DNA of 55,828 nucleotides from a virus (Duplodnaviria; Caudoviricetes). Positions 11,287-12,850 of the stretch are shown piece by piece; within the stretch, counting starts at the first letter, position 1, and each line of letters begins with the position of its first letter. The notes below the pieces were generated by a model. The model worked only from the letters and a program-made list of their open reading frames with translations. It did not search any database and had not been told where the DNA came from. Both the position numbers and the translations under genes were made by a program. The stretch is from positions 1 to 55,828 of IMG/VR virus record IMGVR_UViG_3300044998_000776. One strand, given 5' to 3'.

Positions 11287-11784
11287 ATGGCTGATGATGA
11301 CGATTTCTTGGACGGCTTCTACATGAGGCAGATCGTGTTGGATATCAACAAGATCACCGAGAATCTCTGGCAGGGAGCGATTCCCCCGCGGGGAGACATC
11401 TTAGCAAAAAAAGGATTCCAGGTTCTCGTGCTGTGTGTCGATGAGAATCAGGATGCCAGCCTTTACCTGGGATTGGAAGTTATCTGCGCTCCGGGAGATG
11501 ATGACGAACGTGTCCATCGCATGGAACGAGACCTTAAAGTCTGGATTCCGGCGGCGCAACAAGTCGTCGAAGCCGTACGCCAAGGAAAGAAAGTTCTTGT
11601 TACGTGCATGGCGGGTCTCAATCGATCGGGCATGGTGACGGCTCTGGCTCTCAGAAAACTGACGAGCTGGTCAGGACCGGCAATCGTCAAGCACATGAAG
11701 GCCCGACGACCTTACGCTCTGTGCAACTCTACTTTTGAGAAATATATCAAGGAGTCTTTCCCCGAACCTAAGACGTCCCAGTAG
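11287..11784 (+). CDS. dual-specificity (Cx5R) protein phosphatase
   Basis: KITENLWQG, KKVLVTCMAGLNRSG, RPYALCN; the TAG stop lies inside the downstream tRNA. Confidence 0.88.
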   Translation: MADDDDFLDGFYMRQIVLDINKITENLWQGAIPPRGDILAKKGFQVLVLCVDENQDASLYLGLEVICAPGDDDERVHRMERDLKVWIPAAQQVVEAVRQGKKVLVTCMAGLNRSGMVTALALRKLTSWSGPAIVKHMKARRPYALCNSTFEKYIKESFPEPKTSQ

Positions 11785-11848
11785 CTTAGCGGTTCAAAGC
11801 ACCCGACTCTAAATCGGCGCATCGTGGGTTCGAATCCCACCTGGGGCA
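11775..11848 (+). tRNA. tRNA-Sup(CUA) #1, amber suppressor, CCA not encoded
   Basis: Acceptor GTCCCAG/CTGGGGC, D-stem GCTT/AAGC, anticodon arm CCCGA-CTCTAAA-TCGGC (CTA at 11809-11811), T-arm GTGGG-TTCGAAT-CCCAC, discriminator A. Confidence 0.9.
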
Positions 11849-11853
11849 CTCAT

Positions 11854-11929
11854 TTTCCCGTAGCTCAATCGGTAGAGCAGCGACCTCTAAATTCGCGCGT
11901 TACGGGTTCAAGTCCCGTCGGGAAAGCCA
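11854..11929 (+). tRNA. tRNA-Sup(CUA) #2, amber suppressor, CCA encoded
   Basis: Acceptor TTTCCCG/CGGGAAA, D-stem GCTC/GAGC, anticodon arm GCGAC-CTCTAAA-TTCGC (CTA at 11887-11889), T-arm ACGGG-TTCAAGT-CCCGT, then G-CCA. Confidence 0.92.
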
Positions 11930-11938
11930 ATCGTCGTA

Positions 11939-11967
11939 GTGTACAATTCGTACAGAATGATTAGATA
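11939..11967 (+). promoter_or_regulatory. putative promoter GTGTA-N18-TAGATA for the leader ORF
   Basis: Same spacing as the other copies, with ATG 11974 six nt downstream; the -10 lacks its final T. Confidence 0.45.
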
Positions 11968-11973
11968 TTAACT

Positions 11974-12129
11974 ATGTTTGGCGCGTACTCACAGAATTAC
12001 CCGCAAATGATTTTCCTCTAGCTGCCAGCTTTCGAGTTTCTCTAGCTGCGTCGAGCACGTGGACCTCCGCACGATCTCGTTTCCCTAATCTGGTTGAGAC
12101 GATTGATTGAATATAAGACGATTGATTGA
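11974..12129 (+). other. putative regulatory leader peptide with two in-frame amber codons and an RGPP arrest-like motif
   Basis: MFGAYSQNYPQMIFL*LPAFEFL*LRRARGPPHDLVSLIWLRRLIEYKTID-TGA; TAG at 12019-12021 and 12043-12045, both in CTC-TAG-CTG. Confidence 0.65.
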
Positions 12130-12134
12130 ATATA
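12097..12134 (+). repeat. perfect 19-bp tandem duplication AGACGATTGATTGAATATA
   Basis: Copies at 12097-12115 and 12116-12134. Confidence 0.95.
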
Positions 12135-12146
12135 AAAAGGTTTACC

Positions 12147-12497
12147 ATGCAAACGATGAAGAGAAATGAAGCATATGCCCGTGCTATAAAGGTTTTTGGC
12201 CCTTGGAACGCGTGGAAAAGAGAACACCATTTGGCTTACGGTTTGATCCGAGGGATCTCGTATTCCAAGATGGAAAAGTGCTGTAACGACAACCCGTTGG
12301 CGGTGCCTGTCGAATACGCGCTCTGGGCTCTGGGTGCCTGGCCCGAGAATGTCAAACCGAATGATGGCAAGTTCCATTGCATTCCTATCGAGTACTGCAA
12401 GGAAACTTGGGGGTTGATCCAGTGGGTCAAGAAGCCCGTCCGCGGACCCAAGATTCGGTCGGCTAACAAGCCGCAGCAGCAGGAGGCGGCCCAATGA
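12147..12497 (+). CDS. hypothetical protein translationally coupled to the pth gene
   Basis: AAAAGG SD before ATG 12147; REHHLAYGLIRGISYSKME motif; its TGA overlaps the next ATG. Confidence 0.75.
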   Translation: MQTMKRNEAYARAIKVFGPWNAWKREHHLAYGLIRGISYSKMEKCCNDNPLAVPVEYALWALGAWPENVKPNDGKFHCIPIEYCKETWGLIQWVKKPVRGPKIRSANKPQQQEAAQ

Positions 12498-12850
12498 GCT
12501 AGCTGTACAAACCCCTTCCCATCAAGGAAGGAGATAAGCTCTATATCGTGACTCGTGCTGATATCGATCCTGGTTATCAGATCGTTCAGTCTTGTCACGT
12601 GATTCGGCAATTTTCAGAAGACCATCCCGAACTAGACAAGGAATGGTTTCGAAATTCCAATTATGTTGCCTGCTTGTCAGTGCCGACCGAGAGGGATCTC
12701 GAATTGCTGTTGCAAAAGGCTCAAGAGAGAGGCATTCCCTGCTCTTCTTTCAGAGAGCCTGATATCGATGATCAGCTGACGGCTATCGCGCTAGCTCCCG
12801 GAGAAGCTAGTAAGAGGCTATGTTCCTCTTGCCGATTGGCGTTATGCTGA
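12494..12850 (+). CDS. pth2: PTH2-family peptidyl-tRNA hydrolase with an in-frame TAG at codon 3
   Basis: AGGAGG SD at 12481-12486, ATG-AGC-TAG-CTG, then KLYIVTRADIDPGYQIVQSCH...FREPDIDDQLTAIALAP...LCSSCRLAL. Confidence 0.82.

Follow-up and report, generated by a model that had tools for sequence, protein, structure and literature searches.

Why would a phage with the standard genetic code keep two transfer RNAs (tRNAs) directed to a stop codon, and what would these tRNAs decode? The question is raised by a locus in the IMG/VR virus record IMGVR_UViG_3300044998_000776, which was analyzed over its whole length of 55,828 bases (the window). In this locus, two tandem tRNAs with the anticodon CUA are followed by a short leader open reading frame (ORF) with two in-frame TAG codons ahead of the residues R-G-P-P, then by a gene that we call ORF-X, and then by a PTH2-fold gene (pth) with TAG as its third codon. 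CheckV estimated the completeness of the record at ~15%; therefore, the source genome is implied to be that of a jumbo phage of roughly 370 kb.

An earlier note on this DNA had proposed a two-tier switch, in which pth would be made when read-through of UAG prevails over termination. The features that it had listed were confirmed wherever we checked them. The support that we found for such a switch comes from comparison of related loci (conserved TAGs, a recurring leader, a match between stops and tRNAs, and predicted RNA pairing) and not from experiment. Given these comparisons, it is likely that the operon of ORF-X and pth is controlled by a translational switch that depends on decoding by the phage's own two UAG-reading tRNAs.

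Leader stops and linked tRNAs

The strongest result, in terms of compared sequences, is the match between the stop in the leader and the anticodon of the linked tRNA. A profile search for pth produced 266 relatives, and 80 of them were analyzed; some of these are near-identical, and nine are contigs from the first set of homologs. A stop-directed tRNA was situated within 5 kb of the pth homolog in 72 of the 80 loci. These related loci produced 32 distinct leader rows, ten of them with an in-frame TAG; L143, L155, L159, and the window are further cases of in-frame-TAG leaders. We observed a recurring design in ~34 distinct loci: a short ORF that often ends in FL, a stop, 1–14 codons, and R-(G/A)-P-P located mostly ~400–600 nucleotides (nt) upstream of pth, with distances of up to ~1040 nt in a few cases. 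Ahead of the stop, the peptide varied freely (MNTFL, MTHFL, MKQYEL, MSATPDT, and others), while the stop and the motif did not vary likewise.

Among the leader loci examined, we saw none with a stop that the linked tRNA could not read. In-frame-TAG leaders in the list of 32 rows had CUA tRNAs in nine cases out of ten, with L127 as the exception. In 16 other lineages the leader ORF runs into the word TGAA; there, RGPP is reached only by a four-base reading and then in the +1 frame, and an in-frame alternative is absent in 14 of these lineages. Each of the 16 carries tRNAs with 8-nt anticodon loops holding UUCA. ARAGORN labelled these tRNAs 'ttca', 'tc' or, wrongly, Glu(ttc), and Infernal places the extra loop base in one tRNA of L119. 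The latter locus belongs to the related genome G004, with the leader at 334249–334300 and the tRNAs at 336639–336792. The TGAA leader together with the 8-nt-loop UUCA tRNA makes a candidate natural four-base codon/tRNA pair, and the leader and the anticodon loops seem to have changed in concert. Thus, the earlier suggestion that homologs of pth might share an upstream ORF (uORF) with TAG and RGPP was borne out, with the addition that the stop of the uORF co-varies with the anticodon type of the linked tRNA.

Leaders with two TAGs, as in the window, were also present in L143 (MYL-TAG-LNPPFG-TAG-LHPRSRGPP) and L155 (MSRYW-TAG-VQPPFF-TAG-LRGPRGPP). The leader was not found in the phages Myrna and Catera or in the huge-phage records L075–L078. 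The features of the window and the classes of leaders are collected in Table 1.

Table 1. Features of the locus in the window, followed by leader classes in related loci with the linked tRNAs
Feature	Position or loci	Strand	Remarks
tRNA, anticodon CUA, amber suppressor type (predicted)	11775..11849	+	ARAGORN; Rfam 61.6 bits; G1-C72, A73, without encoded CCA
tRNA, anticodon CUA (predicted suppressor)	11854..11929	+	ARAGORN; Rfam 59.3 bits; U1-A72, G73, CCA encoded
Upstream motif GTGTACAA ... TAGATAT	11939..11968	+	Conserved, directly before the leader ATG
Leader uORF, MFGAYSQNYPQMIFL-TAG-LPAFEFL-TAG-LRRARGPP...	11974..12129	+	TAGs at 12019-12021 and 12043-12045; TGA at 12127-12129
R-G-P-P codons CGT GGA CCT CCG	12058..12069	+	Putative ribosome-arrest motif with the anti-Shine-Dalgarno word CCUCC
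Perfect 19-nt tandem duplication, AGACGATTGATTGAATATA twice	12097..12134	+	Situated after the arrest site and before the start of ORF-X
Ribosome-binding region and AUG of ORF-X (AAAAAGGUUUACCAUG)	12133..12149	+	Predicted to be masked by the RGPP codons
ORF-X, 116 amino acids	12147..12497	+	Conserved partner directly upstream of pth in the clade; motif R.H..AYGL.R...Y...E
PTH2-fold gene (pth), 118 codons	12494..12850	+	In-frame TAG at codon 3 (12500-12502); ATG overlaps the ORF-X stop as ATGA
In-frame TAG leaders	window, L159, L085, L090, L091, L102, L105, L110, L121, L122, L130, L143, L155		CUA tRNA
In-frame TAG leader	L127		95-nt tRNA read as UUA
In-frame TAG leader	L154		8-nt loop CCUCUAAC; a second, four-base reading is also possible
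In-frame TAA leaders, unambiguous	L108, L113		UUA tRNAs
In-frame TAA leader	L081		tRNA loop GGUUAUG; a second, four-base reading is also possible
In-frame TGA leader	L144		Two UCA tRNAs with ordinary 7-nt loops
ORF and TGAA, RGPP in the +1 frame	L093, L094, L096, L097, L099, L100, L103, L106, L109, L112, L117, L119 (=G004), L120, L125, L128, L136		8-nt loops N(U/C)UUCAAN
TAGA, RGPP in the +1 frame	L156		8-nt loop ACUCUAAA holding UCUA

In the window, ARAGORN and Rfam (gathering score 29) detected exactly two tRNAs, which are the tandem pair with CUA anticodons that the earlier note had described. The anticodon loop of both is CUCUAAA, which is 7 nt long and holds an anticodon complementary to a stop codon. 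The nearest relatives of these tRNAs were other stop-directed phage tRNAs, with Arg, Lys, and Trp types close too. The pair as a whole was most like the tandem 8-nt-loop pair of G004, and the nearest relative of the second tRNA in the related genomes was the 8-nt-loop tRNA of G004 at 336639.

The stop-directed tRNAs of many loci (e.g., L080, L083, L084, and the second tRNA of the window) have a mismatch at the pair that closes the anticodon loop. Therefore, ARAGORN prints 9-nt loops, such as CCUCUAAAA, i.e., a 4-bp anticodon stem.

The leader of the window starts after a 44-nt spacer that separates its ATG from the second tRNA. The residues RARGPP are encoded at 12049–12069, 77 nt before the ATG of ORF-X, so that the leader has the form of a small ORF with R-(A/G)-P-P. 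Words of the type R[GA]PP counted in any frame were few in the window (three), in G001 (two), and in G005 (none), with 30 in the GC-rich G004; six leader-like patterns were found in G004, and only two of them, overlapping ones at 334249 and 334288, are at the operon. All three TAGs of the locus do share the context C-TAG-CTG, as had been noticed earlier. The word CTAGCTG occurs six times in the window versus 2.8 times expected, and three of the six occurrences are the ones at 12018, 12042, and 12499.

Is the leader translated across its stops? A close relative that bears on this is L159, a separate metagenome contig with 86–90% nucleotide identity and the same order of genes as in the window (a phosphatase, two CUA tRNAs, the leader with two TAGs and RGPP, ORF-X, and pth). 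Between the two leaders, nine changed codons were synonymous and three were not, and third positions took 10 of the 14 substitutions (binomial P=0.004). In the part from the first TAG to RGPP, third positions took six of the eight substitutions (P=0.02). Since the third-position bias continues after the first TAG, the leader evolves as if it were translated across the TAGs. The N-terminal leader peptide also recurs upstream of the ORF-X homolog, with synonymous changes, in L093, L094, L102, L128, and L159. Judged by how its sequence has changed, the leader is a real ORF and not a chance one. Of the two tRNAs, the second is 100% identical in L159, and the first has five substitutions with the CUA kept. 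The 19-nt duplication is single-copy in L159, so it is probably recent and not essential.

We considered whether the leader region might consist of decayed tRNA genes. This was rejected, as an E-value search of 11925–12560 against Rfam gave only a chance match to a long non-coding RNA.

As for expression of the leader, its ATG has no Shine-Dalgarno (SD) sequence, and the word (G/C)TGTACAA is present ~27–45 nt before this ATG in the window, L093, L102, L128, and L159. The conserved motif in front of the leader may be a phage promoter of a leaderless or near-leaderless leader mRNA. A scan with the sigma-70 consensus found no site, and the pattern GTGTAS-N15-19-TANNNT found only two unrelated sites.

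The early TAG of the PTH2-fold gene

The second target of the tRNAs would be pth itself. The gene begins ATG AGC TAG CTG TAC AAA CCC CTT CCC ATC AAG GAA GGA GAT AAG CTC TAT ATC GTG..., and AGGAGG is positioned 7 nt upstream of this ATG (12494). Read through the TAG, the product matched Pfam PTH2 (PF01981) at 30.2 bits versus the cut-off of 23 (E 5.7e-7) and phrog_1866 ('unknown function') at 1e-16. The AlphaFold2 model had a predicted local distance difference test score (pLDDT) of 93.7. All of the top 13 Foldseek matches were Pth2-family chains with template modeling (TM) scores of 0.57–0.77, the scores being 0.70–0.77 for the Pth2 structures 2zv3, 1q7s, 3erj, 1wn2, and 1xty. Strand 1 of the model is KLYIVTR; therefore, initiation at the next ATG, GTG or TTG, which is the GTG at 12548, would be predicted to cut strand 1.

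The catalytic residues of Pth2 are the Lys of the GKGK loop and the Asp of RDAG. In the product of pth, the canonical lysines of the loop align with P and Y, and E85-P86-D87 aligns at RDAG; the invariant residues of the pth family are R18, Q29, H32, E85-P86-D87, and T93. Hence the earlier assignment of the gene to the PTH2 family holds with respect to the Pfam match and the fold, but not if a canonical Pth2 was meant: by its profile scores and aligned residues, pth is a divergent member of the PTH2 superfamily.

The early TAG is conserved. In the first 11 jumbo-phage homolog loci, ATG was followed 2–8 codons on by a TAG directly before IKEGDKLY in eight cases, with R, R, and T in the other three. 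Over the 80 loci, an ATG, 1–8 codons, and then TAG directly before the conserved domain were found in 41 (39 scored by script, with L124 and L142 read by eye), compared to one locus with TAA and none with TGA. The earlier note had also suggested linkage of CUA tRNAs to such homologs, and we found a CUA tRNA within 5 kb in 33 of the 41 early-TAG loci, with a UUA type in one and none in seven. The huge-phage GenBank records L075–L078 (462–735 kb) have the starts MK-stop-I, MT-stop-I, MS-stop-I, and MNN-stop-I. In the cultured cluster C mycobacteriophages Myrna (L072, 33036–33593) and Catera (L073, 90753–91450), pth is annotated as 'peptidyl tRNA hydrolase' or 'gp' and lies inside a tRNA array; it is preceded by an in-frame GTG TAG or ATG TAG and followed by a tRNA that ARAGORN reads as CUA and the annotation gives as tRNA-Ser or tRNA-Arg.

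Several related loci deserve separate mention. The only homolog with an early TAA is L145, a 675-kb contig (MKET-TAA-ATT), and no tRNA was found there within 5 kb. L077 (LR756501.1, 735 kb) has a second in-frame TAG in the pth domain (FAQEFP-TAG-IYEQW) along with two tandem CUA tRNAs, and may use TAG more widely. A phage transfer-messenger RNA (tmRNA) was situated within ~3.4 kb of pth in eight of the 80 loci, upstream in L085, L088, L095, L104, L105, L124, and L131 and downstream in L144; the tmRNA of G004 sits elsewhere, away from pth.

Could pth be expressed with no help of a tRNA? In a re-initiation model, ATG-AGC-TAG would be a two-codon mini-ORF, and the protein would start at the non-AUG codon after the stop, i.e., at CTG in the window and at ATT, ATC, ATA or GTG elsewhere. 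Most of the early-TAG loci indeed have ATT, ATC, ATA or GTG (starts in genetic code table 11) after the TAG, and the annotated start in Myrna and Catera is the GTG directly after the TAG, with an SD sequence 7 nt upstream. However, at least 10 of the 41 loci have a non-start codon in this place (GTT in six, GTA, AAC, AGC, ACA), which argues against re-initiation as a general mechanism. Re-initiation also predicts no preference for a particular stop, while the observed counts were 41 for TAG, one for TAA, and zero for TGA, and AT-rich relatives favor TAA as the upstream stop (in G005, TAA 249, TGA 144, TAG 86). Moreover, the SD sequence fits the upstream ATG in the window, L077, and L002, L003, and L005 (the last three with GGAG 6–7 nt before the ATG), and a CUA or UUA tRNA was present within 5 kb in 34 of the 41 loci. 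We therefore regard re-initiation as unlikely.

The TAGs are not errors of reading, a possibility that the earlier note had named as one that would undo its proposal. Logan contigs from two runs of the probable source sample, which are not independent of the source, showed zero differences over 11700–12900 at word depths of 82.6 and 23.4, and all three TAGs are kept in L159. The sequencing runs X5 and X7–X20 also contained small parts of the window, with 168 differences counted for X7. On these grounds, a pseudogene or a sequencing error was rejected. The pth start in L159 is ATG AGT TAG CTG TAC AGG, in which codon 2 is changed synonymously, the TAG is retained, and K is replaced by R.

One could still think of decay, with the TAG of pth as a nonsense mutation and the leader as an accidental ORF in DNA that is degenerating. 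The neighborhood of the locus does include a deletion scar, the NMNAT/NadV remnant at 10732–11247, which carries an in-frame TGA, and the ADP-ribosylglycohydrolase ORF at 53071–53646 looks truncated. On the other hand, L159 keeps the three TAGs amid synonymous changes, and the substitutions in pth between the window and L159 (171 nt available) were distributed as 4/4/21 over the three codon positions. Taken with the presence of the early TAG in 41 of the 80 homologs and of the leader design in ~34 distinct loci, these counts make decay scarcely credible.

Finally, the TAGs might be ordinary sense codons of a genome, or of its late genes, recoded in the manner of genetic code 15, with the tRNAs as general decoders. 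The window represents only ~15% of the genome, and recoded regions could sit outside of it; L077 has its second TAG within pth; and recoded phages with suppressor tRNAs are already known, reportedly from the work of Borges et al. in 2022. Yet among the 58 listed gene models of the window, pth alone had an internal TAG, while eight terminate with TAG, including those ending at 4976, 8712, 17999, and 19425. The window is densely coding in the standard code (ORFs of at least 100 amino acids cover 0.90 of it), and the stops in its first gene set were TGA 35, TAA 20, and TAG 9. The same held for the three related genomes compared as wholes, G001 (252 kb), G004 (369 kb, with terminal repeats), and G005 (372 kb). 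Their coding density in the standard code was 0.80–0.91; TAG read-through shifted the coverage by –0.7 to +1.9 points; and ATG-x-TAG starts were no commoner than ATG-x-TAA or ATG-x-TGA. Cross-genome alignments that span an in-frame stop numbered six for TAG (one of them pth), three for TAA, and eight for TGA. Thus the many conserved genes broken by TAG that code 15 would bring were not seen in the window, and no excess was seen in G001, G004, and G005; the earlier statement that recoding is not genome-wide holds for the window and for these genomes of 252–372 kb. Recoding would also leave unexplained why the TAGs sit at the very start of pth and before RGPP. We consider it very improbable.

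RNA pairing and the proposed switch

How would reading of the leader control ORF-X? In the minimum-free-energy fold of the window leader, the ribosome-binding region and AUG of ORF-X (AGGUUUACCAUGC) are paired with GCACGUGGACCU. The duplex of the RGPP segment had an energy of –11.4 kcal/mol versus –5.8 in shuffled sequences, and 0.5% of shuffles were as good. When the duplex of this segment with the SD/AUG of the following long ORF was computed for the 34 distinct leader regions, it averaged –12.0 kcal/mol compared to –7.4 in shuffled sequences, and it was better than 95% of shuffles in 22 of the 34; masking of the start is thus a prediction in the majority of the regions. The spacing from RGPP to the downstream ATG was mostly 50–65 nt. 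In codon terms, the first Pro was CCT in 32 of the 34 regions, CCUCC was nearly universal, and the Arg was always encoded, by six different codons. The leader peptides before the stop were 3–40 residues long, variable, and without a signal or membrane segment, i.e., without what a monitor of export would have.

These conserved nucleotides permit an account in RNA only. There, the leader peptide would have no function, CCUCC would be part of an anti-SD hairpin opened by any translating ribosome or by another factor, and the nucleotides GGNCCUCC would encode R-G-P-P only incidentally. Such an account keeps the gate of stop-codon read-through and drops only the stalling step. It agrees with CCT in 32 and GGA for Gly in 19 of the 34 regions, even in GC-rich genomes, and with complementarity extended to GAGGUUC. 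It does not, however, explain an Arg that is invariant yet drawn from six codons, nor why RGPP lies in frame where the loop of the tRNA has 7 nt and in the +1 frame where it has 8 nt (16 lineages). In L130, RGPP is immediately followed by a stop, and there is no conservation of the sequence downstream of RGPP. An RNA-only element is in our estimate quite unlikely.

For the switch with stalling, the following sequence of events could be proposed. Ribosomes would start at the leader ATG (11974). Without suppression they would terminate at the first UAG; the RGPP segment with its CCUCC would stay paired to the ribosome-binding region and AUG of ORF-X, and the operon would be off. If both UAGs were read by the CUA tRNAs, the ribosome would reach R-G-P-P and, by analogy with the RAPP/RGPP arrest peptides, stall there, holding the anti-SD segment inside. 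The start of ORF-X would thereby be freed, with the start of pth coupled to it via the ATGA overlap. At codon 3 of pth, full-length protein would need a third read-through; otherwise, a dipeptide minigene would be translated. With two UAGs in the leader and one in pth, the output should rise steeply with the efficiency of suppression.

With regard to purpose, we favor the idea that the hydrolase-like protein would handle the suppressor tRNA, by-products of suppression or stranded ribosomes, with the leader monitoring suppressor activity, because arrest peptides are analogous in monitoring the activity of the downstream product. The circuit would be either feed-forward, with rescue or recycling scaled to read-through, or a negative feedback by hydrolysis of charged or peptidyl suppressor tRNA.

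A wider view, which we offer tentatively and with considerable doubt, is that of a 'code-state' homeostat. The stop-directed tRNAs would be dedicated trans-acting inputs, the leader would gauge the reading of stop words (UAG, UAA, UGA or the four-base UGAA and UAGA), and the PTH2-fold protein with ORF-X would be the effector. By hydrolyzing the charged or peptidyl form of the same tRNA, or by releasing stranded ribosomes, the effector would fix the level of read-through. If this were true, the family would also hold natural four-base-decoding tRNAs and a built-in natural reporter.

Several observations weigh against the proposed switch or against parts of it. Read-through, stalling, and unmasking are all steps that we infer. 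The two tiers are not universal among related loci: seven early-TAG loci have no suppressor tRNA within 5 kb (four of these loci are truncated), the early TAG is missing from pth in seven loci with CUA tRNAs, the lineages with UUCA, UUA, and UCA tRNAs have no early stop in pth, and in the AT-rich G001 and G005 the early TAG is present and an R[GA]PP leader is absent. The SD sequence of Myrna and Catera fits the GTG after the TAG, so their TAG may just precede a normal start. With respect to pairing, 12 of the 34 leader regions fail to beat 95% of shuffles, where the downstream ATG was chosen automatically and in some of the 12 is one without an SD sequence. The overall fold energy of the leader region is ordinary (z of 0.58 for 211 nt and –0.95 for 126 nt), and given the conservation of CCUCC at the nucleotide level, a part of the 'RGPP' conservation could be due to selection on RNA. 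On the protein side, pth scored 20.5 bits versus 126 for the NCBIfam equivalog NF003314 and 20.2 versus 82 for TIGR00283; with these sub-cut-off scores and the canonical lysines missing, the peptidyl-tRNA hydrolase activity is putative. ORF-X had no match in profile searches of Pfam, PHROGs, NCBIfam or PDB, and no usable match in the Atlas.

ORF-X itself is conserved, with homologs upstream of pth in 19 distinct sequences. It is 86% identical in L159, with substitutions by codon position of 16/6/30, and its AlphaFold2 model was weak (pLDDT of 63). A fusion of ORF-X with pth in GC-rich relatives was considered and rejected: the frame that is open upstream there is an alternative one with overlap, and ORF-X terminates in a frame of its own.

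Elsewhere in the window, genes include a dual-specificity phosphatase, a PD-(D/E)XK nuclease, a ferredoxin, and glycosyltransferase-like proteins. The region 10732–11247 is a deletion scar of an NAD-salvage pair: 49 NMNAT-like codons (motif GRFQPFHNSH) continue through an in-frame TGA and join the ~100 final codons of a NadV/NAPRTase-like gene (PF04095, 2.1e-9). A full-length NadV is present in L009. Three more TAG-terminated ORFs were inspected for read-through products. At 3981–5309, a free-standing GIY-YIG endonuclease ORF follows 24 nt after a TAG-terminated gene in the same frame; a read-through fusion was rejected, as the GIY-YIG domain has its own ATG at 5001. Extensions after the TAG were also rejected for 54636–55400 and 53071–53646, both on the minus strand, where there was no domain signal beyond the stop. 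The latter, the ADP-ribosylglycohydrolase ORF, covers only positions 32–187 of the 287 of its profile and ends with TAG; a second ORF (52809–53162, minus strand) comes after it in another frame, which may reflect a frameshift or truncation.

Known systems and meaning

The components of the locus are of known kinds (an arrest leader, suppressor tRNAs, a stop-codon sensor, and a Pth2 fold). In prfB, the gene of RF2, an early in-frame UGA senses the competition between termination and alternative decoding, by +1 frameshifting with ordinary tRNAs, and what is sensed is the product of the gene itself, RF2. The early in-frame stop as a sensor of this competition is common to both systems, but the phage system would need a separate suppressor or quadruplet tRNA, and its product is a PTH2-fold protein rather than a release factor. 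The bar minigenes of phage lambda, two-codon ORFs followed by a stop, are a source of peptidyl-tRNA drop-off that Pth clears. ATG-AGC-TAG would likewise be a two-codon minigene if not read through; unlike the bar minigenes, it is the 5' end of the hydrolase-like gene itself and is always TAG-ended.

To archaeal and eukaryotic Pth2 (PF01981; 2zv3, 1wn2, 1xty, and human Bit1 1q7s), the phage protein is similar in fold, with TM scores of 0.70–0.77, and in several motif positions, namely the R of strand 1, the Q..H of helix 1, an acidic residue that precedes the last strands, and a T. It differs in P-G-Y in place of the GKGK lysines and in the tie of its gene to stop-directed tRNAs, as found in 72 of the 80 loci.

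Regulatory arrest peptides (ApdA, ApdP, ApcA; SecM with RAGP; the Streptomyces RAPP/RGPP uORFs) resemble the leader in that a small uORF ends in R-(A/G)-P-P, with the motif about 50–65 nt before the regulated gene and the arrest codons predicted to pair with the downstream ribosome-binding site (parts available of PMC12992588, PMC10951233, PMC10987492, PMC7897499). RAPP and RGPP are described as arrest cores that are robust and not relieved by EF-P; they are excluded from proteomes and located upstream of diverse genes (PMC12992588, available part). In the available part of the same paper, the terms phage, suppressor, readthrough, and stop codon do not occur. In contrast to those peptides, the phage motif stands behind one or two stops or a UGAA/UAGA word and would be reachable only via a dedicated phage tRNA; a signal or membrane segment is lacking in the leader, and its pre-stop peptide is free to vary. 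The input would be decoding of a stop and not export of a protein.

Phages with genetic codes 15 and 4, crAss-like phages, and Lak phages, as far as the available parts of their descriptions go, similarly have a phage tRNA with a stop-complementary anticodon. Those phages, however, have many genes interrupted by stops, whereas here the code is standard and the detected targets are just the leader and the pth start. For the Xanthomonas phage XacN1, the available part of its description mentions two CUA tRNAs with no identifiable target (PMC5852040); we found that ORF295 of XacN1 is a canonical Pth2 without an early TAG. Engineered UAG-gated switches and quadruplet-decoding tRNAs are also similar, since the output is tied to suppression of an early UAG and 8-nt loops read four-base codons of the UAGN type (available parts of PMC6412442, PMC4764823, PMC8481270, PMC9094753). 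Those are laboratory constructs, while the phage circuit is natural and conserved.

A literature search with little coverage of subscription journals found no published description of this design, in line with what the earlier note had supposed. What is seemingly undescribed is the combination, in which the arrest motif comes after a stop or a four-base word, and this stop or word would be readable only by the element's own tRNA.

For suppressor tRNAs of phages with the standard code, the locus gives a concrete and testable target. It would also widen the inputs of arrest peptides, from protein export and small molecules to decoding of a stop by a specific tRNA. The related loci suggest natural four-base tRNA/codon pairs (UGAA, UAGA), each with a matched natural reporter, which may be of interest for genetic-code expansion. 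They also suggest that phages have a PTH2-fold subfamily of their own (phrog_1866), with a biology linked to stop-directed tRNAs and in many cases to a phage tmRNA. Cultured Mycobacterium smegmatis phages of cluster C carry the pair of pth and a CUA tRNA, and a part of the proposed system would thus be testable at the bench.

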